DNA of 64,000 bases from the NCBI GenBank assembly GCA_902777385.1, contig CACYTP010000012.1, positions 9,552 through 73,551 of the forward strand, given 5' to 3'. The position numbers and the translations under genes are program-made. Source of the DNA: an uncultured bacterium. GTDB taxonomy: Bacteria; Cyanobacteriota; Vampirovibrionia; Gastranaerophilales; Gastranaerophilaceae. How positions within the stretch are numbered: the first letter of the stretch is position 1; every line of letters starts with the position of its first letter. Below the pieces are notes generated by a model. The model saw nothing but the letters and a program-made list of their open reading frames with translations. It was not told where the DNA came from and made no database searches. Of this stretch, positions 293 through 29,178 are shown in pieces.

Positions 293-370
293 ATTATGAA
301 AATAGTTGTAAAATAATGAATATAATTCATATAATATGAAATAACTTCATTTTTGATTAACGGAGGATAT

Positions 371-1156
371 ATGAAAAAAGGATTTACTTTAGCAGAAGGT
401 GCTACGCACGTAGCTCAGTTTCCAAAGCCTAGTTGTGCTGCGTTTACCCTCGCAGAAGTCTTAATCACCCTTGGTATTATCGGAGTTGTTGCGGCTATGA
501 CTCTGCCAACGCTTATACAAAACTACAGAAAACACGAAGTCGAAACCAAACTGGCTAAATTTTATTCCGTTATGAACCAGGCAATTAAACTGTCAGAAGT
601 TGAAAACGGTGAAATGTCAGCATGGGGTGATATTCAAAGTGGATTTGAACAGGACGAAAATGGTAATAATGATTTATCTAAACCTCGAGCTGAAGCGTGG
701 CTTAAAAAATACATATTCCCATACCTTAGTGCAGTCGAAATAAATAAAATTCCAAATGCACAAAAATTTGAAGTATATTTTAAAGATGGCAGCCTTGCCT
801 TATTTGGAGCGGATAGTGTTGTTTATTATGTAAACAAAAATGCATATAAACTTAACGGAAACACAGAAGGAAAAGATGCATACAATAAAATAGATTTTGG
901 AACAAGGGCATTTACTTTTTTTATAAAACACGCTCATACATGTGAATATTCAACTATCTCGGAAAGCTCAAAATATTCATGCGATGATGCAGGATTACAA
1001 CCATATAAATGGGGTTGGGATGGCACGGAAGAACACTTGCGTAATCGCACAGATATAGGCTGTAATGCAAATGCGACAAATGAAGCTGCATATTGTACTG
1101 CATTAATCCAACTTTACGGCTGGAAGATACCAAAAGATTATCCGTTTAAGTTTTAG
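371..1156 (+). CDS. prepilin-type N-terminal cleavage/methylation domain protein (pilin-like paralog 1)
   Basis: GGAGGA SD 6 nt before the ATG at 371. N-terminus MKKGFTLAEGATHVAQFPKPSCAAFTLAEVLITLGIIGVVAAMTLPTLIQNY carries the class III signal (F+1, E+5, hydrophobic helix). C-terminus is Cys...GW...DYPF. Confidence 0.75.
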   Translation: MKKGFTLAEGATHVAQFPKPSCAAFTLAEVLITLGIIGVVAAMTLPTLIQNYRKHEVETKLAKFYSVMNQAIKLSEVENGEMSAWGDIQSGFEQDENGNNDLSKPRAEAWLKKYIFPYLSAVEINKIPNAQKFEVYFKDGSLALFGADSVVYYVNKNAYKLNGNTEGKDAYNKIDFGTRAFTFFIKHAHTCEYSTISESSKYSCDDAGLQPYKWGWDGTEEHLRNRTDIGCNANATNEAAYCTALIQLYGWKIPKDYPFKF

Positions 1157-8077: not shown

Positions 8078-8902
8078 TTACCACGGATAATCGCGGTCCA
8101 TCTGCCAGCCATCTCTCATAATTTTTGCTGAACAAGTATAACCGTCTGAATTTCTACCTTTGCCGCAACCGGCTCGTATATTGTTATTATTCCACAGAGT
8201 TACATCTTGAGCATCTGCACCATCTACATTAGAACTACCCGGGAAGAGCATCCAACCGCTGTTTCCCAATCCGTGTCCGTCATTTGTTCTAGAATATTTG
8301 AAATAAAAAAGGTCCTTTCCGAGTGTATTATAACCTGAATACGGTCCGTCAACATCAATATAAAAGACTCCTCTGTCATTACCGGTATAGGCATAAGCCA
8401 TCCAAAGTACGCAGGCACCGTTTGGCATCTGAGCCGACCAAGAATAAGTTGAGAAAGGATTGAGATCCGCACCCCTTAAATTTTTGTATGGACGATAAGG
8501 TTTTCCTTCATAACACATAACTTTATCGGCATCTGCAACACGTTCATACATTTTTGCACCCATTTTTTTAGGTACCAAGTGAAAACAGCTTTCTTGAGAA
8601 TAATCAAATTCCGTTCCTCCGTTATCACAAGACCACTTGTGCATAGGTAGCGTGTCAAACTCTGCTGATACAGCCTCTGCACCTGTCTGTAACTGTGAAA
8701 ACGTCTGTTTCAAACGATTTAATGCAACACCTTTTTGATAATTCTGAATTAAAGCAGGCAAAGTCATAGCAGCAACCACACCAATTATGCCGAGGGTGAT
8801 TAAGACTTCTGCAAGTGTAAAGGCGGCACGACGAGGCTTTACAGACTGAGCTACGTGCGTAGCACCTTCGGCAAGAGTAAAAGCGGCTTTCTTTGATGTC
8901 AT
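8078..8902 (-). CDS. prepilin-type N-terminal cleavage/methylation domain protein (pilin-like paralog 2)
   Basis: From the ATG at 8902: MTSKKAAFTLAEGATHVAQSVKPRRAAFTLAEVLITLGIIGVVAAMTLPALIQNYQK. C-terminus is CSAKIMRDGWQMDRDYPW. The ORF track extends it to 9343 through repeat elements (see findings). Confidence 0.7.
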   Translation of the reverse strand: MTSKKAAFTLAEGATHVAQSVKPRRAAFTLAEVLITLGIIGVVAAMTLPALIQNYQKGVALNRLKQTFSQLQTGAEAVSAEFDTLPMHKWSCDNGGTEFDYSQESCFHLVPKKMGAKMYERVADADKVMCYEGKPYRPYKNLRGADLNPFSTYSWSAQMPNGACVLWMAYAYTGNDRGVFYIDVDGPYSGYNTLGKDLFYFKYSRTNDGHGLGNSGWMLFPGSSNVDGADAQDVTLWNNNNIRAGCGKGRNSDGYTCSAKIMRDGWQMDRDYPW

Positions 8903-9040
8903 CACGAACTTTACAAAGCGAACCACCGCAACGAAGTGAGGATGAGTGAGCCTGTATGCAGAGCTGTTTCGGGATCTGGCCACCTTTACATAATTACGAC
9001 TTTCACTATATGCACTACCTAAAGAATCACATTGGCTAGA

Positions 9041-9059
9041 TGCTGAAACGAGTTCAGCA
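9041..9059. repeat. palindromic repeat unit TGCTGAA-N5-TTCAGCA
   Basis: Same stem as 50026..50043, with the 5-nt loop reverse-complemented (acgag vs ctcgt). Confidence 0.7.
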
Positions 9060-9115
9060 CGACATTTAATGGGTGTAGCACCCTCGGCTAGGGTAAAGGC
9101 GGCTTTCCTACCCAT

Positions 9116-9157
9116 GTCATTGCGAGGGAGCAAGTAGGCTTGCGACCGTGGCAATCC
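9116..9157. repeat. REP-like unit GTCATTGCGAG...GGCAATCC
   Basis: Shares both ends with 49157..49191. GC-rich imperfect palindrome in an AT-rich genome. Confidence 0.7.
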
Positions 9158-9284
9158 AGCCGGTTTTGCAATAACTGAGAAATTTTGCCTCGCTTTTTTA
9201 TTTATATTTCTGTAATCTAATGGCTGAATTACGTCGCAAATCAAACCTTTGATTTGCTCGTAATGACATGTGTCCGCATTAGCA

Positions 9285-9387
9285 AAATCTTGTAAATCCT
9301 TACTACGAGAGGATTTTACCCCCCTCCCTATGTTTAAATCCAATCATGATAACATCCTCCGTGGTTTTTGTACATTATCATTATAAC
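9285..9387 (-). repeat. 103-bp leader module, copy A (partner 50215..50317)
   Basis: 8 mismatches in 103 positions, counted by eye. On the minus strand it contains TATAAT, GGAGGA, ATG and the hairpin AAATCCT-N9-AGGATTT. Confidence 0.85.
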
Positions 9388-9604: not shown

Positions 9605-11077
9605 TTAAGCTGAGAATGTTTTGAAGGTATCTTGAGTATTCTTTTCAATAACTTTTGATACAGCTTCTTTTTCTGTTTGGATAGCTTTTTGTTCAGTATC
9701 CAATTGTTTCAATCTCAATTCAAGATTTTTATCTTCAGCTTGGATAATTTCAATCTTTGAATTAATATTTTCTACAGCTTGATCGTATAAATATTTATCA
9801 TATTCGTATTGATTCATAGCGTTGTTATATGCAGCCTGATCTGTAGATGTTTCAGTAGTAAGTGCATATTCAATGTATGTAGTAGAACCGTCATCATTTT
9901 GTTTTGGAATTGCAATTGAAATTAATCTTCCTGATGAATCTTTTTCGACTTTACAATTTTCAACGCCTTTGAATTCCGAAATCTTTTGTTCACTGCCGAT
10001 TGTATAGCAATTGATAGCTGACAAAGAAGCTTTTGTCTTTTCATCATATATTGCAGCACCTAAATTGCTCTTTGAATAGAAGTAAGGTTTCTTTGTGCCT
10101 GTAGTAGTATCAGTTACATATCTTACCAACCAGTCAGTATCACCGTATTTCTGTTTTAACAATTCAGCCCAAGCTCGTTCTTCTTTCAACATATTGTTAA
10201 TCTGAGTCTGAGAAAGTCCTTCAAATTCAGAACCAAGAGTAGCTGAAGTAGTTGTAATACTAGCAACTTCATCGTCTGACAAGTTATATCTTTCTGTTAC
10301 ATCTTTATAAACTTGTTTTTCATAACCGTTTCCTGCTGCATTTTTCTGAACCAAAGATATAGCATACATAGGATCTGTTTGACTTCCATCATATAAACAT
10401 ATAATTAAATCATCTTCAGAATATGCAGTTGCATTACCGTTCGCATCAGAGAAAGTACCGTCGGCATTCTTAAATACCTGCTGCATATTAGTAAAGTTAT
10501 TCGTATCCGGTGTATAATAATATTCAAAATTAGATATATCAGCCGCAGTACAAGCTTCCATAGTAGCAGTATCAGACTTTTTAGTCTTTTCTACATAATA
10601 CCCTTGAGCATCTTGCAGTACTGTATAAGTACCGTCCGCAAGAGTAATTGTACTTGCAACCTGAGTTGATACACCTGTAGGCAACTGACCTAAAGGCCTT
10701 AATGCTGCAGCACCTATTGCATAAGTATCATTAGGTTTTGCAGTCAATTGAGTTGCAACACTTGATGCCGCAGATACAACAGCATAATCATCCTGCCATT
10801 TTGACAAGTAACTTACTGTGTACATACCGTTTGATTGAGCAATCATAGATGTTACAGTATTTGTTAATGCACCATCTGAGAATGTGTACATCGTCTTAGT
10901 ATAAGCATCTACTGATGGCGGTGTTGGTACAACCATACCCAGCAAATCGTTATAGTAATTTGCAGATTCATTTGACAACAATGTACGTTGCTGATTGACT
11001 TGTTGACCTTCAAACTCAACGTTGTTTTGTCTGGCCGTTAGTCCTAAAAATCTTGCTTGTGATGCTGCCATTCCCAT
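9605..11077 (-). CDS. hypothetical protein with helical termini and a Thr/Ser/Ala-rich centre
   Basis: 490-aa ORF with AAAGGAAAC upstream. N-terminus MGMAASQARFLGLTARQNNVEFEGQQVNQQRTLL. C-terminal coiled coil IEIIQAEDKNLELRLKQLDTEQKAIQTEKEAV. No family recognised. Confidence 0.6.
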   Translation of the reverse strand: MGMAASQARFLGLTARQNNVEFEGQQVNQQRTLLSNESANYYNDLLGMVVPTPPSVDAYTKTMYTFSDGALTNTVTSMIAQSNGMYTVSYLSKWQDDYAVVSAASSVATQLTAKPNDTYAIGAAALRPLGQLPTGVSTQVASTITLADGTYTVLQDAQGYYVEKTKKSDTATMEACTAADISNFEYYYTPDTNNFTNMQQVFKNADGTFSDANGNATAYSEDDLIICLYDGSQTDPMYAISLVQKNAAGNGYEKQVYKDVTERYNLSDDEVASITTTSATLGSEFEGLSQTQINNMLKEERAWAELLKQKYGDTDWLVRYVTDTTTGTKKPYFYSKSNLGAAIYDEKTKASLSAINCYTIGSEQKISEFKGVENCKVEKDSSGRLISIAIPKQNDDGSTTYIEYALTTETSTDQAAYNNAMNQYEYDKYLYDQAVENINSKIEIIQAEDKNLELRLKQLDTEQKAIQTEKEAVSKVIEKNTQDTFKTFSA

Positions 11078-11173: not shown

Positions 11174-12700
11174 CTATGCGTAACTCCACCATTTCCAGCT
11201 TGGTTCAAGAGCAACATCCTTTGCATCATAATATGTTGCAATATGATCTTTTATAGATTGTTTTTCATCAGCACCGTTATAATACCCTTCACTGACACTA
11301 TCAAGATAGTCTTCACCTACCTGATATGCAACATGTTCACCCCATCTAGGCAAATCAGAAGGATATAAATACGCTGTAGCATGCGTAATTTCGTGAACCA
11401 TAACCTGAACCATCAAATACCAAGTTGTACTAGGATTTTTTGCCAGATTTTCGTCAAGAAACATACCTGCATCGCTCGGATCATCTTTTACCCAATCTCC
11501 GGTAGTTGTATTTTGATAATATACATATTGACCTAAAGTAGTACCTGCGCCTGAGCTTCCTGCATTTAGATTGGCATAAGAAATTTTATTATTTGCAATT
11601 AATCTGTCTAAAGCTTTTGTCTGGTCAGTTAACCCTGCAGCCTTAAAATAATCTCTCGTCATTTCGATTAAAAATTCTTTTTTCTGAGAAAGAGTCATTG
11701 TACTAAATTTTGACTGAATTTCTGCAGCCCAAGTTTCAACTTTACTTTCATAATTACTGAAACTGCCGATTTCATTACCAATCAACTCTTTTATTTCCTG
11801 ATATGACAAAATATCATTATTATCTTTATCAACAACGGTAAATGCTTTATTCAACAAACCAAAGAAATAACCGTGAGATGCTTCCCAGTCATCCTTTTGT
11901 GTAAGTTTCCACAACTGGCTTGCCGTAATACCTGTATCTTTAGTAATACTGCTATCCTGTGAATGCAGCCATTCAAATAAGCTGTCGGTGTCATCAAATT
12001 CATCTAAATAAGAAGTCTTATTTGTATTATCACCGTCATCATCGGTACGAGTACCGCTTTCATCATCAGTACCGCCTGTACCAGAAGTACCACCGGTACC
12101 GCCTGTTGTTGAACCACTATCATCATCGTCAGTTCCGTCTGTACCTGAAGTACCACCTGTACCAGTACCTGAACCTGTACCGCCTGTACCTGAAGTGCCG
12201 CCCGTACCGCCGGTTGTTGAACCGTTTTCATCATCGTCAGTTCCGCCTGCACCAGTTCCTGAACCAGTACCGCCTGTACCGGAAGTTCCGCCCGTGCCTG
12301 TTCCTGAACCTGTACCACCCGTACCGGAAGTTCCACCTGCACCTGAACCCCCGTTACCTGAACTGTGGTGAAGATTATATATCATCTGCTTAATTTTATT
12401 TTCCTGAGCCTTTGACAAGGTACTAACCGTAATAGAAAGTCCTGTTCTAACAGCATTATCAATACCCGAATTTTTAATATTAGTCTGTTTTGCAGATACA
12501 CCATCAATAGCAATCTGGTTCGCAATTTCATAGATAGACTTATTGCCGTTTTCAGCAATCAGTTTATCTATAACGCTTTCTTCAGCACCCTCTGCCTGAT
12601 ATTCAACAATTTCATTTAACAGTCTTTGCTTTGAAGAAATCCCTTCTATTTGCTTTTGCTGACTTACAATCCTTAGAAGAGGGGTATTGTTAATATCCAT
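11174..12700 (-). CDS. hypothetical Gly/Thr/Ser-repeat protein with an EF-hand loop and HExxH motif (putative metallopeptidase)
   Basis: AAGGAG SD. GGTSGTGGTGSGTG repeats at residues ~113-226. DKDNNDILSYQE EF-hand loop (11795..11830). HEITH (11381..11395). Confidence 0.6.
   Translation of the reverse strand: MDINNTPLLRIVSQQKQIEGISSKQRLLNEIVEYQAEGAEESVIDKLIAENGNKSIYEIANQIAIDGVSAKQTNIKNSGIDNAVRTGLSITVSTLSKAQENKIKQMIYNLHHSSGNGGSGAGGTSGTGGTGSGTGTGGTSGTGGTGSGTGAGGTDDDENGSTTGGTGGTSGTGGTGSGTGTGGTSGTDGTDDDDSGSTTGGTGGTSGTGGTDDESGTRTDDDGDNTNKTSYLDEFDDTDSLFEWLHSQDSSITKDTGITASQLWKLTQKDDWEASHGYFFGLLNKAFTVVDKDNNDILSYQEIKELIGNEIGSFSNYESKVETWAAEIQSKFSTMTLSQKKEFLIEMTRDYFKAAGLTDQTKALDRLIANNKISYANLNAGSSGAGTTLGQYVYYQNTTTGDWVKDDPSDAGMFLDENLAKNPSTTWYLMVQVMVHEITHATAYLYPSDLPRWGEHVAYQVGEDYLDSVSEGYYNGADEKQSIKDHIATYYDAKDVALEPSWKWWSYA
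12023..12364 (-). repeat. degenerate in-frame tandem repeat encoding (GGTSGTGGTGSGTG...DDD) x3
   Basis: Three decaying repeat blocks, each ending in an acidic DDDxxGSTT stretch. They also generate shadow ORFs on both strands. Confidence 0.8.
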
Positions 12701-12954: not shown

Positions 12955-13233
12955 TTATCCTAAGAATGTTATATGCTGATCCGGAACATTGCCTTTACCT
13001 TGTGGTTGTTCAGATGAGGAAACTACATATTTATAAGTTCTTGCAATTTTCTTTATCACTGTAGATATAGGATTGTTAGACGGCATTGAATCATTCAAAT
13101 TACCTTCAAATTCTCTACGAGCATTAGGCTTTTGCAAAGCAAGTATAGCCATATTCGGAGTAACATTGTTACCGTCACCGAATGAAATGTACTGTTTAGA
13201 TGTATTAAATTTTACAGGATTTATTGTTATCAT
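12955..13233 (-). CDS. small hypothetical protein (92 aa)
   Basis: GGAGG 7 nt before the ATG at 13233. Own promoter at 13295..13323 and a hairpin + T-run terminator near 12810..12840. Starts MITINPVKFNT. Confidence 0.45.
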   Translation of the reverse strand: MITINPVKFNTSKQYISFGDGNNVTPNMAILALQKPNARREFEGNLNDSMPSNNPISTVIKKIARTYKYVVSSSEQPQGKGNVPDQHITFLG

Positions 13234-13294
13234 TTTCTGCCTCCTCTCTTGAGGTTTTATTAAGTGTGTTTTGAACACTTCATCTAACACTTTT

Positions 13295-13323
13295 AATATA
13301 CATTATAAAAATTATTTTGTCAA
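13295..13323 (-). promoter_or_regulatory. sigma70-like promoter TTGACA-17-TATATT
   Basis: Minus strand has TTGACA (13323..13318), a 17-nt spacer and TATATT (13300..13295), about 60 nt upstream of the 92-aa gene. Confidence 0.5.
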
Positions 13324-13569
13324 CCCCTACTATAAAGTTTTGTTAAGATACCTATAAAGCAAGTATATTCTATATTGTCGATAAAGTGGCAAATATACAC
13401 TTATTCAACCGAATGGTTGGGATTTAAGTATATCCAATCGGGTAATTTTTAAATTTTGCCATTTTTTTACCAAAATCAAAGAACTACCCAATAGGGTAAT
13501 TGTAAAAATGACACTTATTCGGTTAAATATAAATAATCTTTTTCATACTTCCAGCTATTCTTAATTCCA

Positions 13570-13598
13570 ATGAGCCTCATATAGAGGCTCTTTTTTTT
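13570..13598. terminator. hairpin GAGCCTC-ATATA-GAGGCTC with T-run (end of the 16288..13624 operon)
   Basis: 7-bp perfect stem. The T8 run is on the plus side and an A-run on the minus side, so it is strongest in the plus orientation. It lies directly downstream of the 146-aa gene. Confidence 0.5.
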
Positions 13599-13623
13599 AT
13601 TTAAATTATATTTTGAAAAATAT

Positions 13624-14064
13624 TCAGGCAATATAACTTAGTATAGCTCCGCCAATTTCTTCATTAGGATCAAAAAATGGGGATTTTACAGGATTTAGCG
13701 AATTATTTATCAGCATACTAATCAAAGGTCCAAAAGCGTCAGGAACTTGAGTTTTTCTGTAAATACCTGCCAAAAATGTTTGGATATTAGGCGATTGTGT
13801 CCTATTAAACCTTGATAAAGCAGGATACATTTTATCAATATTTTTAACTCCGTTTTCCAGCATTCTGTCAAGTATATAAAGAGTTTCAACAATCTGTTCT
13901 TCATTTTGAGAAAACTTTAAGACTTCATTCAGGTAAGGTAAAACCTGCTCTCCCTGCCGGACAAATTTATCAACCTTTTGCTGATTAAAACAACAGTAAT
14001 TTCTGCCGGATGTCGGCATGTTCACACTATAGGTATTTACACAAAAATTTACAGGCTGAATCAT
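13624..14064 (-). CDS. hypothetical protein, HEAT/ARM-like helical (146 aa)
   Basis: Third gene of the riboswitch-led operon. Helical repeats LPYLNEVLKFSQNEEQIVETLYILDRMLENG. Starts MIQPVNFCVNT. Confidence 0.5.
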   Translation of the reverse strand: MIQPVNFCVNTYSVNMPTSGRNYCCFNQQKVDKFVRQGEQVLPYLNEVLKFSQNEEQIVETLYILDRMLENGVKNIDKMYPALSRFNRTQSPNIQTFLAGIYRKTQVPDAFGPLISMLINNSLNPVKSPFFDPNEEIGGAILSYIA

Positions 14065-14075
14065 AACTATAATCC

Positions 14076-15581
14076 TTATGAATAAACGAACGGAGGACCG
14101 TTTTTAATCTCAAACAAAATATTTTCAGCTACGGTTTTGAGCTGTTCTTTCGGTTTCCCTTCATCAACCTGCTTGTAAAACTCATCTACAAGAGGTTTGA
14201 TAGCCGCATCTTTTTTGGCTTTAAAATTCCTAAGCTCTGTAGATACAAGCCTTTGCTGCAAATCCAGTTCTGTCTGAGCGTTAATTTTTTTAACCTGAAC
14301 TTCTTTAATTGCATCCCCAATGACTTTTCCGCCATAACTTACACCTGCCAGAGCGGTCGTACCAAAGAACAATTGTTGGAATTGTTTGTTATCAGGTTCT
14401 ATCAACAAGTTATAGAAAAATGCTCTATAGTCATCAACGAACGAAGAGAATGAAGGTTTTTGAGTGCCGTCACCGCCAATATTTGGGTTAACTTTTACCG
14501 TAGAAGTGTTTATTTTTTGCATAACCATTTCAACAAAAGCTTTTTTATCTTTTTTCTTCCAGTTAGTCATTTCAACTATTTTTTCAACATCCTGACGTTT
14601 TGCATTGATAAATTGGAACATATTTTCCATATATTCCTGCTTAAAACGTTTATTTCCACGGGCTTTTGCAATATACTCCAAATCTTTTTTTGTTTTTTCA
14701 ACAAATTTTTTAGTTTCACTATGTCCTGCCCTCAGATTTTTCATAGAATACAAGGACAAACCTATAATAGAAGCTAACGTTGCACCGCCAAGTGCAAAAT
14801 ATCTTAGCATATCTTTTTTGTTATCTTTATCCGCACCCGTAGCTTCTGAAGTAAATGTCAAATCTTTTGAACTTTTGAACATGCCAAACGGTTGTTCATT
14901 ATATTCTGAAGGAGCAAGATATGATGAAAACATCTTAGTTTTTTCAGAAAGAGAATTTCTTATAATCTGCATTTTTCCGCTAAACGACTGTGTTTCAACA
15001 GCAATCAACTGTTCCTGAAGATTTTTTTGAATATCTGCTTCCCGTTTTTTAACCCAAACTTCCTTAAATCCGTCCAAAAATGTTTTACCCATAAATGCAG
15101 TAGCCGTCAGCGTCAACACACCCAAACCGGCACGAATTGTTTTTTTATTCGGGTTTTGAACCATTTGAACAATTGCCTGTACAGTTTCTTCATTTATAGA
15201 TATATTACGGGTAAAGGATGTAATCCATTTTTCCTTTGCAATTTCGTTTGTAATTTTGGCATTTCTTTTTACAAAGTACGAAAGCCCTGCAAACACACCC
15301 ATAACACCTACAGCCAATCCGCTTATTGGAAGCAGACTTCTCTGGGGATTTGTTTTGTTCTCATTTAATTGTTTCGGTAACTTTACATTATCTGAAATAA
15401 TTAAAGTATCACGGCTTGAATCAAGCGATAGAGCGTTTGGAGAATACAAATCATCATTATCTTTAATAAAATTATTGACGATAACGCCCTCTTTTGTTTT
15501 GTAGTTATTGACTTTCTGAGAGTTTGTTAAATTCCTCAGCTGACGCCTTGTTTCTCCGTCATTGAATTGTATCGTATTCAT
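14076..15581 (-). CDS. hypothetical 4-TM membrane protein with internal duplication
   Basis: Two halves each end in a TM helix followed by FLDGFKEVWVKKREADIQKNLQEQLIAVE or VIGDAIKEVQVKKINAQTELDLQQRLVSTE. No family recognised. Confidence 0.6.
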   Translation of the reverse strand: MNTIQFNDGETRRQLRNLTNSQKVNNYKTKEGVIVNNFIKDNDDLYSPNALSLDSSRDTLIISDNVKLPKQLNENKTNPQRSLLPISGLAVGVMGVFAGLSYFVKRNAKITNEIAKEKWITSFTRNISINEETVQAIVQMVQNPNKKTIRAGLGVLTLTATAFMGKTFLDGFKEVWVKKREADIQKNLQEQLIAVETQSFSGKMQIIRNSLSEKTKMFSSYLAPSEYNEQPFGMFKSSKDLTFTSEATGADKDNKKDMLRYFALGGATLASIIGLSLYSMKNLRAGHSETKKFVEKTKKDLEYIAKARGNKRFKQEYMENMFQFINAKRQDVEKIVEMTNWKKKDKKAFVEMVMQKINTSTVKVNPNIGGDGTQKPSFSSFVDDYRAFFYNLLIEPDNKQFQQLFFGTTALAGVSYGGKVIGDAIKEVQVKKINAQTELDLQQRLVSTELRNFKAKKDAAIKPLVDEFYKQVDEGKPKEQLKTVAENILFEIKNGPPFVYS

Positions 15582-15592
15582 ACCGCAAATCC

Positions 15593-16288
15593 TTAATCTG
15601 TTTCTTTGGAATCATTTTCACCCTTAATTTTTTTGTATAAATCGTGGATAAAGGTTTTAAGTCTAAATGCTTTCTTTGTCTCATCGACCTGCTTGTCCTC
15701 GTTTTGAGCATCCTGAGGATCAAATATTGAGAAAAGAGATTTTATTTTCTTCTTGAACTCGTTTAACGGTTCTCCGATTTTTTTGGCTAAAGCGGCTTTA
15801 ACTTCGCCATAAACAGCAGCAAGTTTATCGGAAATTTCAACAAATTTTTGTGATATTGACTGTGCTATATTTTGCATAGCGGCAGGAATATTTTTTATTA
15901 AATTAATCGTACCGCCTACAATATTATTTAACACAAAACTTACGGGTTTTGCAATAATCGGCGGAAAATTTTGAGAAAACATGCCTGAGATATCTGCCAA
16001 TTTCTGAGAAATATTCATCATATTCTTTTCGAACAGAGCAATTCGCTGAGCGAAATTAACTGCATCCTGCTGATGTTGAGCCTTTGCAGCTTTTTGAGCT
16101 CTTAACATAGCACCTATAGCTGCACACTCGTTCCAACTCATTTCTCCCGGTTTTGCGGTATGATCTGCCTTTCTCATACTACCGGCACCACCCATGCCAT
16201 TACAAATCGGACATGCACCCAACGGGGCTCCGTGCGGACACGTTCCTGCTTTCATTATGCTTGATTGTTGCATCACCGCTGATGGCAT
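15593..16288 (-). CDS. hypothetical protein with N-terminal CPHGxPxGxCPxC knuckle and long amphipathic helices
   Basis: 231-aa ORF immediately after the riboswitch-like leader. Contains CPHGAPLGACPICNGMGG, then Ala/Lys/Gln-rich helices. Confidence 0.6.
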   Translation of the reverse strand: MPSAVMQQSSIMKAGTCPHGAPLGACPICNGMGGAGSMRKADHTAKPGEMSWNECAAIGAMLRAQKAAKAQHQQDAVNFAQRIALFEKNMMNISQKLADISGMFSQNFPPIIAKPVSFVLNNIVGGTINLIKNIPAAMQNIAQSISQKFVEISDKLAAVYGEVKAALAKKIGEPLNEFKKKIKSLFSIFDPQDAQNEDKQVDETKKAFRLKTFIHDLYKKIKGENDSKETD

Positions 16289-16289
16289 T

Positions 16290-16456
16290 AAAAAATCCTC
16301 TTTCTGAACTTAAGAGGACAATCAAAGAACTTTATACAAACTTTTCCATATCGCTCGTAGAAACAGTTTTCTTTGAGTGTTCCGACTTCCCTATATTATT
16401 ACGGGTACACGGTTGCGGCTACAGTCGGGGATTTGCACCCCGTTTCCTCTTAACGC
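16290..16456 (-). promoter_or_regulatory. cobalamin-riboswitch-like 5' leader with SD-sequestering terminator hairpin
   Basis: Minus strand reads GAGGAAACGGGGTGCAAATCCCCGACTGTAGCCGCAACCGTGTACCCGTAATAATATAGGGAAGTCGGAACAC. It ends in the hairpin TCCTCTT-N9-AAGAGGA (16296..16318) plus a U6 run 1 nt before the ATG. Confidence 0.6.
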
Positions 16457-16461
16457 TACTA

Positions 16462-16490
16462 ATACTAAGATAACATGTACAACATGTCAA
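16462..16490 (-). promoter_or_regulatory. sigma70-like promoter TTGACA-17-TAGTAT driving the leader
   Basis: Minus strand has TTGACA (16490..16485), a 17-nt spacer and TAGTAT (16467..16462). Embedded in a region with two ACATGT palindromes. Confidence 0.55.
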
Positions 16491-27699: not shown

Positions 27700-29178
27700 A
27701 TGTATAAAAACAACAAAATGCAATATGTAATTAAGACTTGCTCCAGTGAAAATCCGCAAGACTTACAAAATCTGTTGAACGAAATGTCTATGAATGGCTG
27801 GGAATTGTACAGCCTTAACGAAGTAGAAACTGATGACGGATTTAAATATAATTGTATTTTTATGTCGGAAAATGCAGCTTATGATGATGAAAGTATTGGA
27901 GATAGAATAAATATTACATCTTTTAAGAGTCAAATGGAAAAAATGCTTTCTCCGGAATTAACTCCTTATGAAAACTGTATTGATATCCAATCAAAAATAT
28001 CAAATCAACAGAAGAAAATTGCAAAAATAAAATCAGAATTAGAGGGGGAAGCACCTGCATCTGTTAATCGTAAAAAACTTAATGACAAAATATCCGCAGG
28101 ATTAAAAGAATTAGACGAATTAAAGAAAAAGCTTGCAAAAGCCACTTCGCCTGATATTATGTTTTCAAGATTAAAAGAAGACAAATTTTCCATTAATCTG
28201 AGTGAAGAACTCTTGGATTATGTTGATTCGGAAAAAGATTTTTCGGAAGATGATTTAGTAGCATCAACCGTAAAGTCCAGACTAAAGTTGACGGATGAAT
28301 ACGGCTATGTTATGCCGCAGTTGGTATTTAACGAAGACCAGACACTAAATCCTTATGAATTTTCTATAAAAGTCAGAGGGTATGAAGTACACAAATCTTG
28401 TGTATATCCTGCTTATTCCATGTTTTTTGCAGATGACCTGCATCTTGAAAAAATGCCAAAAAATGCAATTAAAGACATTGATACAATAACAGGTAAAAAA
28501 ATTGTATGGTTAGAAAAATCGCAAACAAAAGATTTCTGGGAAAAAGGTATTTCAGGTTCTGAATATATTACAAGAATGCTTGAATTTTACGCAATCAAAT
28601 ATGCTGACGAGCTTATTGATTATGCAGAAATTGAAAAATACATAGATGTAGTAGAAAAGGTTAATCCGTTTCTTGTCGAAAACATTATTCCTGACTATGT
28701 AGCCTTGTCAGACTTGAAATTCATACTTACAAGTTTAATTAAGGAAAGAATTTCAGTAAAAAATATTGTATATATATTTGAAAAACTTAATGACTATGCT
28801 GATGAATGTCCAAAATCCGAGTTACTGAAAAAGCTAAGACTTGCAATGTCAAAAACTATATGCAGCAAATATATAAATCAAGACGGAGTAATCGCAGTAT
28901 TTGATTTAAGCGAAAAAACCTTAGAGGAATTCGCACCAAATTATGAAGATGATGATTCAAGTATTATAACAATAGACGGTACGTTTGCAGAGAAACTGGC
29001 AGCAAAACTCACTAAAAAGGCTAAACATCTGGGAATTTCATCTCCAATATTAGTTGCACCGTTAGAATTCAGACAGCTGTTTTATACACTGCTTTCAAAT
29101 TATATGAACAATATTACGGTTCTTTCTATGGAAGAGCTTGGCTGCAATTTCAGAATAGAAACGGTTGCAGAGATTTAA
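27700..29178 (+). CDS. soluble DUF4177-like + coiled-coil + FlhA/FHIPEP cytoplasmic-domain-like protein
   Basis: N-terminal NEMSMNGWELYSL (DUF4177-like). The C-terminal half has YGYVMPQLVFNEDQTLNPYEFSIKVRGYEV and ALSDLKFILTSLIKERISVKNIVYIFEKLND, resembling FlhA-C. No TM domain. Confidence 0.5.
   Translation: MYKNNKMQYVIKTCSSENPQDLQNLLNEMSMNGWELYSLNEVETDDGFKYNCIFMSENAAYDDESIGDRINITSFKSQMEKMLSPELTPYENCIDIQSKISNQQKKIAKIKSELEGEAPASVNRKKLNDKISAGLKELDELKKKLAKATSPDIMFSRLKEDKFSINLSEELLDYVDSEKDFSEDDLVASTVKSRLKLTDEYGYVMPQLVFNEDQTLNPYEFSIKVRGYEVHKSCVYPAYSMFFADDLHLEKMPKNAIKDIDTITGKKIVWLEKSQTKDFWEKGISGSEYITRMLEFYAIKYADELIDYAEIEKYIDVVEKVNPFLVENIIPDYVALSDLKFILTSLIKERISVKNIVYIFEKLNDYADECPKSELLKKLRLAMSKTICSKYINQDGVIAVFDLSEKTLEEFAPNYEDDDSSIITIDGTFAEKLAAKLTKKAKHLGISSPILVAPLEFRQLFYTLLSNYMNNITVLSMEELGCNFRIETVAEI

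Follow-up and report, generated by a model that had tools for sequence, protein, structure and literature searches.

What might three proteins without detectable kin of known function do in bacteria that appear unable to make vitamin B12, when their genes are placed under the control of a B12 riboswitch? The question is raised by an operon of three genes, here called A, B and C, in contig CACYTP010000012.1 (assembly GCA_902777385.1) of an uncultured Gastranaerophilaceae bacterium; the window that we analysed is a stretch of 64,000 nucleotides of this contig (positions 9,552 to 73,551). Gastranaerophilales are widespread gut and rumen bacteria, and in the searchable literature we found neither an experimentally characterised member of this order nor an earlier description of the A-B-C module. 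Our analysis identifies the leader of the operon as an AdoCbl-II cobalamin riboswitch, a regulatory claim that is as secure as comparative genomics allows. We infer, from the logic of the regulon, that A, B and C make up a membrane-anchored complex, repressed by B12, that acquires corrinoids or hands them over, and we give this reading a probability of about 0.4.

An initial annotation of this DNA had described the leader as B12-like. A permissive Rfam scan finds the AdoCbl-II aptamer (RF01689) upstream of gene A at 30.7 bits, which is below the gathering score of 36.5 bits, and a scan of the whole window at gathering thresholds reports two transfer RNAs only and misses the aptamer. Taken alone, the score of the window copy would be doubtful as evidence for a riboswitch, and it is the orthologous loci that validate it. 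A relative of B is carried by 332 GTDB species representatives, and our locus comparisons cover 80 of these, designated by L numbers where single loci are named. Orthologous copies score above the Rfam gathering score in 11 of 15 loci (37.3-49.9 bits), always just 5' of the A homologue, and together with three distant loci described below this threshold was passed in 14 of the 18 loci scanned overall. A covariance model that we built from orthologous AdoCbl-II copies gives the window copy 80.4 bits (16357..16474) and places the aptamer 5' of A in 78/78 loci, that is, in all of the 80 fetched that retain upstream DNA. In an alignment of 82 sequences 98.9% of the stem cells are paired, against 23-48% when the partners are slid, and five pairs change on both sides; such changes occupy 70 cells, against 18.5 in shuffles, and 0/500 shuffles reach 70. 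The annotation had tied its claim to the presence of the leader at orthologous loci, and since the aptamer is kept at every orthologous locus examined, the claim survives. The window copy owes its low Rfam score to an additional hairpin (CCC...GGG) within the P6 arm. This insertion also occurs in the closest relatives of the window, L001, L003, L004, L005 and L014, and goes with longer matches to our covariance model. P6 extensions set cobalamin riboswitch classes apart, and the insertion in this sub-clade could alter the corrinoid form sensed. The RNA itself belongs to a known riboswitch class, of which it is a new member, and carries the P6 insertion in one sub-clade.

The expression platform points to the direction of control. 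From the aptamer to gene A it consists of a covarying hairpin with a conserved CGNGC loop core, a stretch complementary to the aptamer's 3' flank, an anti-Shine-Dalgarno (anti-SD) and Shine-Dalgarno (SD) pair, six U residues and the ATG. In 25 leaders the CGNGC hairpin has five pairs, with compensatory changes in up to eight sequences per pair, and the loop ACG(U/A)GC; it is a candidate P13-like regulatory hairpin. A kissing-loop partner for this loop was sought by eye in L4 and L5 of the aptamer, where no convincing complementarity was found. The anti-SD UCCUCUU (16312..16318) pairs with the SD AAGAGGA (16296..16302), and the U6 run (16290..16295) ends 2 nt 5' of the ATG of A at 16288, an arrangement kept in all 30 leaders displayed. 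A second copy of AAGAGG lies at the 5' edge of the aptamer, and according to folding the anti-SD can pair with either copy. The element therefore lies, as expected of the AdoCbl-II class, in a 5' leader whose platform could mask the SD or end transcription. The covariation of the stems and the conserved, SD-sequestering, terminator-like hairpin suggest that this is a B12-OFF switch, which is the simplest model, and that the operon is probably repressed by B12. With corrinoid bound, the 5' AAGAGG would be held inside the aptamer and the anti-SD would then pair with the SD, so that the resulting hairpin with its U6 run would block translation and probably terminate transcription. Without corrinoid, the anti-SD would be captured by the 5' AAGAGG of the aptamer and the operon would be on. 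By this logic A, B and C would be made under B12 scarcity.

The arrangement of the genes supports a single transcription unit on the minus strand (16490..13480), comprising promoter, AdoCbl-II riboswitch, A, B, C and terminator (Table 1). The initial annotation had described three tightly packed genes with gaps of 11 nt, and the coordinates of the open reading frames (ORFs) bear this out, with A-B at 15582..15592 and B-C at 14065..14075; both gaps hold TAAGGA directly 5' of the following ATG. The putative sigma-70-like promoter adjoins the 5' side of the aptamer and is assigned by consensus match only; a T/A-rich box, TTATTTTA, is kept at the equivalent position across the leader alignments. 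A hairpin bounding the operon, placed by the annotation at 13570..13598, is indeed present at 13572..13590. Its T8 tract is on the plus-strand side, and on the minus strand A8 precedes the stem and a weak U tract follows it; further along the minus strand, 13501..13482 also resembles a terminator. For the next gene (13290..12955) there is a separate, strong promoter-like site (13323..13295, 11/12 matches). The promoter-like site of the operon, its 3' terminator-like hairpins and the separate promoter-like site of the next gene indicate that A, B and C form a discrete unit.

Table 1. Positions of the operon, its regulatory elements and the mapped segments of its products in the window
Feature	Position	Strand	Basis or description
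Putative sigma-70-like promoter, TTGACA-17 nt-TAGTAT	16462..16490	-	10/12 consensus matches
Cobalamin riboswitch aptamer, AdoCbl-II class (RF01689)	16370..16464	-	Permissive Rfam scan, 30.7 bits
Extra hairpin in P6 arm	16389..16405	-	Leader alignments
Expression-platform hairpin (CGNGC loop core), candidate P13-like	16344..16362	-	RNAalifold, 25 leaders
Putative sequestor or terminator hairpin	16290..16318	-	Sequence conservation and folding
Gene A, 231 aa	15593..16288	-	ORF call
Knuckle codons of A, C17-x-H19-x6-C26-x2-C29 (CPHG....GACPIC)	16202..16240	-	Invariant in 33 homologues
Gene B, 501 aa	14076..15581	-	ORF call
B strong hydrophobic segment 1, residues 82-106	15264..15338	-	KD19 maximum 1.88
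B repeat unit 1, residues 128-218	14928..15200	-	Short helix, hydrophobic 149-165, long helix
B strong hydrophobic segment 3, residues 256-280	14742..14816	-	KD19 maximum 1.51
B repeat unit 2, residues 380-472	14166..14444	-	Short helix, hydrophobic 403-418, long helix
Gene C, 146 aa	13624..14064	-	ORF call
Operon 3' end	13482..13590	-	Hairpin 13572..13590 and terminator-like site 13501..13482

This unit is ancient and essentially universal in the Gastranaerophilales and related non-photosynthetic Cyanobacteriota, a conclusion that is well supported. The order A-B-C is found in 80/80 species loci while the flanks are rearranged, and B is 53-59% identical in most of them. The labelled records among these loci are assigned to Gastranaerophilales, Melainabacteria or Cyanobacteria, save for a few metagenome-assembled genomes (MAGs) labelled Clostridium or Muribaculaceae, and the remaining ones are unclassified 'uncultured bacterium' MAGs. 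In most loci A either overlaps B or directly adjoins it, and the gap between B and C is 8-18 nt, which suggests co-translation of a complex. A search with the B profile among 1.84 billion cluster representatives recovered only 233 related clusters, about 60 of them full length, indicating that the B family is restricted to one lineage.

The most distant relatives are informative about the link to B12. In L083, L085 and L086 B is 28-33% identical to that of the window, the order A-B-C is kept and an AdoCbl-II riboswitch above threshold lies upstream in 3/3 (38.1-43.3 bits). The most distant locus of all, L081, is from a MAG labelled 'Cyanobacteriota bacterium' and encodes a B of 627 aa and a C of 190 aa, the latter aligning to the C family at a probability of 98.4%. 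Its first gene (L081:263-1405) encodes a highly charged protein of 380 aa that is not alignable with A and starts HSHHHVPAH..CCGCGG. In place of AdoCbl-II, the leader of L081 holds a Cobalamin riboswitch of the classic kind (RF00174; 39.8 bits, gathering score 31.5). The riboswitch class has thus changed while B12 control has been retained, which argues strongly that the link is functional. At the same locus a TPR protein of 734 aa that has a HEFAH motif at its C-terminus is encoded 12 nt 3' of gene C (L081:3889-6093) and may be a fourth member of the operon there.

AdoCbl-II riboswitches (RF01689, clan CL00101) control btuB, nrdDG or metE-type operons. The aptamer of the window is like them in its core, its covarying helices, its site in a 5' leader and its SD-sequestering, terminator-like platform, and unlike them in that the window copy has the P6 insertion and falls below the gathering score, and in that the families of A, B and C have not previously been tied to B12. 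In these lineages the AdoCbl-II type precedes mainly the A-B-C operon and nrdDG. We scanned metagenome contigs with an exact pattern of the aptamer core which, being derived from operon-linked aptamers, is biased towards the operon type; of 122 matches, 76 precede an A homologue, 22 nrdD, three an ECF S-component-like protein, two a TonB-dependent receptor and two a CobA/BtuR adenosyltransferase. Other genes, including those for an FGE-sulfatase domain, DUF4292 and small unknown proteins, follow in eight cases, and no ORF was called in nine, eight of which are too near the contig end. On other low-GC contigs the aptamer core lies before a membrane protein that resembles an ECF S-component and has a Lys-rich N-terminus (L090, L098 and L162), before FGE-sulfatase-domain proteins (L128 and L150) and before an unknown 77-aa protein (L127 and L156). 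Four species loci have a further AdoCbl-II copy, which is on the other strand and divergent from the first (L041:2996-3092, L048:2974-3070, L078:2767-2860 and L023:1485-1580, all minus strand). These second copies precede nrdD, and nrdG as well in L041, so that in some species two B12-controlled units lie back to back. The nrdDG genes encode the classical B12-independent ribonucleotide reductase under B12 control. Directly 5' of the riboswitch, about six loci have genes with CdhD and Fe-S Pfam domains (for example L066:1967-3100 and L043:1136-1975), which are the domains of corrinoid iron-sulfur protein subunits. The host organisms themselves appear to be B12 auxotrophs that rely on an external supply: gut Melainabacteria genomes have been scored as incomplete for the B12 pathway (PMC4914512), and B12 is missing from a list of their complete vitamin pathways (PMC3787301).

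The proteins encoded by the operon were called unassignable in the initial annotation, and every search that we made has left them so. Read down to E <= 1, scans of A, B and C against Pfam and NCBIfam gave chance-level matches only, as did PADLOC and PHROGs (E >= 0.004), by which they are not recognised as anti-phage or phage proteins; sequence and profile searches against PDB sequences gave no significant match. Neither the three proteins nor their distant orthologues match profiles of BtuB, BtuC/D/F, BtuM, ECF-CbrT, CbtAB, CbiMNQO or NiCoT, and A, B and C also have no likeness to MetE or NrdD and no Pfam or NCBIfam homology to CorA. As far as sequence and, for B, predicted fold can tell, the protein module is unrelated to any characterised family. 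All of the peptide strings quoted in the annotation are found in the ORFs of the window: the cysteine string CPHGAPLGACPICNGMGG corresponds to residues 17-34 of A, and the two strings called juxtamembrane to residues 168-196 and 420-449 of B.

Protein A has 1712 homologues, none of them named. It consists of an N-terminal Cys/His knuckle, a Gly-rich linker, an invariant PGEMSW.EC and long amphipathic helices rich in Ala, Gln, Asn and Lys. The knuckle is retained in homologues at 28-32% identity and is plausibly a ligand-contacting or metal-contacting element. The AlphaFold2 (AF2) model is poor, with a mean predicted local distance difference test score (pLDDT) of 47, and places helices at 52-107, 110-149, 153-186 and 200-222. 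The N-terminal 68 residues gave no match to PDB sequences, and the database matches of the protein are weak and to coiled coils only. We rejected a DnaJ-type zinc finger, which has at least two CxxCxGxG motifs, because A has a single one, at residue 26, and no Pfam match. Neither A nor C has a signal peptide or a strong hydrophobic segment.

Protein B is predicted to be an all-helical membrane protein. The annotation saw it as two halves, and this reflects a real internal duplication: in a profile-profile alignment with hhalign residues 128-218 align to residues 380-472 with a probability of 98.1% (E 9e-14). Two transmembrane helices had been proposed for each half, which holds only in part: segments 82-106 and 256-280 are clearly hydrophobic, but the other two, 149-165 and 403-418, span just 16-17 residues and are less hydrophobic. 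Invariant Lys/Asp pairs close these weaker segments (2 and 4), the C-terminus NGPPFVYS is nearly invariant, and B has no Cys and no conserved His. The AF2 model is mediocre (pLDDT 67.6, predicted template modelling score (pTM) 0.45), with helices at 80-111, 146-222, 251-306 and 399-473. A Foldseek search, which the annotation had proposed, gave nothing significant in the PDB with this model; the best match has E 0.44 and TM-scores are at most 0.21. Protein C, with 2338 homologues, is small, soluble and helical, and about 110 of its residues make up a highly conserved core. Its description as HEAT/ARM-like finds weak backing in the L081 orthologue, where HEAT_2 reaches 20.7 bits (cut-off 27.7) and Arm 19.8 bits (cut-off 20.6); the C of the window has no Pfam match, and a search of the C profile against the PDB gave an armadillo fragment only (E 1.0). 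On these sub-threshold likenesses C is possibly HEAT/ARM-like.

How might such proteins work together? B would be anchored in the cytoplasmic membrane by its two duplicated hydrophobic units, each running on as a helix about 75 residues long. A would present its invariant knuckle on the Gly-rich tether, followed by the amphipathic helices, and C would be a small HEAT/ARM-like adaptor. A and C, which lack signal peptides and are translationally coupled to B, would probably assemble on its cytoplasmic helices, and the complex would serve corrinoid acquisition or handover at the cell membrane, with the knuckle as the candidate contact for ligand or metal. B12 auxotrophs normally keep their uptake genes under B12 riboswitch control, and the apparent auxotrophy of organisms that use B12, together with a riboswitch type limited almost to this operon and nrdDG, makes corrinoid acquisition or handover the most likely function. 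We also count in its support the CdhD and Fe-S neighbours, the invariant knuckle of A and the His/Cys cluster of the first gene in L081. Several points weigh against it. Corrinoid binding or transport by A, B and C is proposed tentatively, from regulon logic. A regular expression for the canonical B12-binding motif DxHxxG (base-off/His-on) finds no instance in the three proteins. B, in which just four segments are hydrophobic (two of these weakly) and neither His nor Cys is conserved, is unlike any known B12 importer; its loop charges, all net positive, fix no topology; and, for a diderm, the operon supplies no component fit to take B12 through the outer membrane. Canonical transporters (BtuFCD, ECF-CbrT, BtuM, BtuB) may be encoded elsewhere in these genomes, with or without a riboswitch, our survey being one of loci. 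The bias of the metagenome pattern and the quality of the two AF2 models count on the same side. Public metatranscriptomes gave only short spurious contig matches, which speak neither for nor against B12-dependent expression.

Four other explanations can be weighed against this one. If the leader were a chance resemblance or a decayed element, A, B and C would have no relation to B12; the sub-threshold score of the window copy and the failure of the whole-window scan to report it speak for this, and it is effectively refuted by the aptamer's presence at 78/78 orthologous loci, by the many copies that exceed the threshold and show covariation, by the conserved platform and by the other class of cobalamin riboswitch in the distant L081. 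Accepting the riboswitch, one may suppose instead that the complex is made under B12 scarcity and remodels or protects the envelope, or replaces a B12-dependent process. The same riboswitch type controls the B12-independent isozyme nrdDG, which would be a parallel replacement; the long amphipathic helices of A, with their weak coiled-coil matches only, recall apolipoproteins or phasins, and B resembles a membrane anchor with long stalk helices and not a polytopic transporter. Yet none of the three proteins is enzyme-like, and we know of no B12-dependent process for which helical membrane proteins without enzymatic activity stand in; the invariant Cys/His knuckle points to chemistry with a ligand or a metal, and universal conservation under a universal riboswitch fits a core nutritional function. 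We regard this sparing or adaptive role as rather unlikely, while giving it real weight.

The knuckle can also be taken to mean metal handling (cobalt, or zinc or nickel), with B as a channel with CorA-like juxtamembrane helices and A as a Cys/His metallochaperone. B12 riboswitches are known to control cobalt importers, and in CbtA/CbtB, the nearest parallel to such a system, and in other riboswitch-controlled cobalt transporters a membrane protein is likewise joined by a small partner with metal-binding residues. The His-rich start and CCGCGG cluster in L081 and the invariant Lys/Asp pairs that end segments 2 and 4 of B would suit such a function. A, B and C have no homology to CorA, CbtAB, NiCoT or CbiMNQO, however, and gut Melainabacteria reportedly lack complete B12 synthesis (PMC4914512, PMC3787301); since cobalt import would be purposeless in the absence of a complete pathway, we downgraded it and consider metal handling improbable. 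Just as improbable, or slightly more so, is a secreted alpha-helical pore-former or translocon made of B and A, with C as a helical-repeat chaperone; expressed during B12 starvation, B and A would enter foreign membranes by hydrophobic helical hairpins, and corrinoids would be freed from neighbouring cells. Like XaxAB/YaxAB/PaxAB, ClyA, Hbl/Nhe/Ahl and type III translocator-chaperone operons, the operon encodes a few all-helical proteins (two or three in those systems) with hydrophobic hairpins and coiled-coil stalks, very long helices flank the hairpins of B in the AF2 model, and in size C is comparable to class II chaperones; some of those systems also lack signal peptides, as A, B and C do, and have a small helical-repeat partner. 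PaxB (E 0.52, TMq 0.13), XaxB (E 0.88) and ClyA (E 1.7) are among the top, chance-level Foldseek matches of B, and weak sequence matches include Hemolysin BL L1 (E 0.41) and the SseD translocon protein (E 0.017, 15.2 bits against a cut-off of 130). Every one of these similarities is statistically insignificant. Moreover, B is duplicated internally, a folded N-terminal Cys/His knuckle such as that of A is atypical of a type III substrate, no secretion system is linked to the operon, and a universal core cluster of the lineage under nutrient control and strong purifying selection looks more like housekeeping. The lineage is related to the predator Vampirovibrio, and were this explanation true, a nutrient riboswitch would be wired to a cytolytic or predatory device.

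If corrinoid acquisition or handover is the function, the module stands well apart from described systems. With BtuB-BtuFCD, ECF-CbrT, BtuM and the Bacteroides BtuG/BtuH it shares riboswitch control and membrane association in B12 auxotrophs. There is no sequence relationship to the known importers, and, unlike them, the operon has no ATPase, periplasmic binding protein or beta-barrel and combines long soluble helices in B with two cytoplasmic-looking partners. BtuM contacts cobalt through a cysteine, and the Cys/His knuckle of A is possibly analogous. Of the genomic clues to the way in which this lineage handles B12 scarcity, the universal, riboswitch-locked module is the strongest; acquisition or handover by it would constitute a new class of vitamin uptake unrelated to BtuB/BtuFCD, ECF-CbrT and BtuM, and would bear on cobamide competition within gut communities. 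With another function, it would add a hitherto unknown type of membrane function to those under B12 riboswitch control.

Some neighbouring genes deserve mention. About 138 nt 3' of gene C in some 45 of the 80 loci lies a member of an unannotated family of 350-540 aa with several paralogues (window 9605..11077, minus strand; L006:3867-4934; L011:1482-3104). Its conserved N-terminus (MGMAASQARFLGLTAR..), variable middle and conserved C-terminal helix give it a flagellin-like architecture, and it has no Pfam or PHROGs match. We rejected this conserved gene as a member of the operon because of its own sigma-28-like promoter: the region between C and the flagellin-like gene holds a conserved sigma-28 (FliA)-like promoter, TAAAGTTT-N11-GTCGATAA (for example L007:5985-6135 and L017:3137-3256), and 5' of this ATGTTAC..GTAACAT, an inverted repeat and possible operator. 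These sequences suggest that the flagellin-like family belongs to a late flagellar regulon, transcribed apart from the B12 operon. Between the operon and the flagellin-like gene, only in the sub-clade of the window (L003 and L004), is a gene for a 508-aa protein (window 11174..12700, minus strand) with long low-complexity repeats of Gly, Thr, Ser and Asp, a weak EF-hand-like match, a C-terminal HEITH (HExxH) and no family assignment; compared with the TPR-HExxH protein of L081, it proved unrelated. Elsewhere in the window, a 492-aa product (27700..29178, plus strand) matches the FHIPEP (FlhA) profile only in its C-terminal cytoplasmic part (310-653 of 657) and appears to be FlhA-like without the usual N-terminal membrane domain. 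Proteins with a prepilin N-terminal methylation motif are encoded at 353..1156 (plus strand) and 8078..9343 (minus strand) of the window and at L085:10367-10705, one of them with DUF6613; scattered around the operon locus and its relatives, they show this genome to be rich in type IV pilin-like genes.

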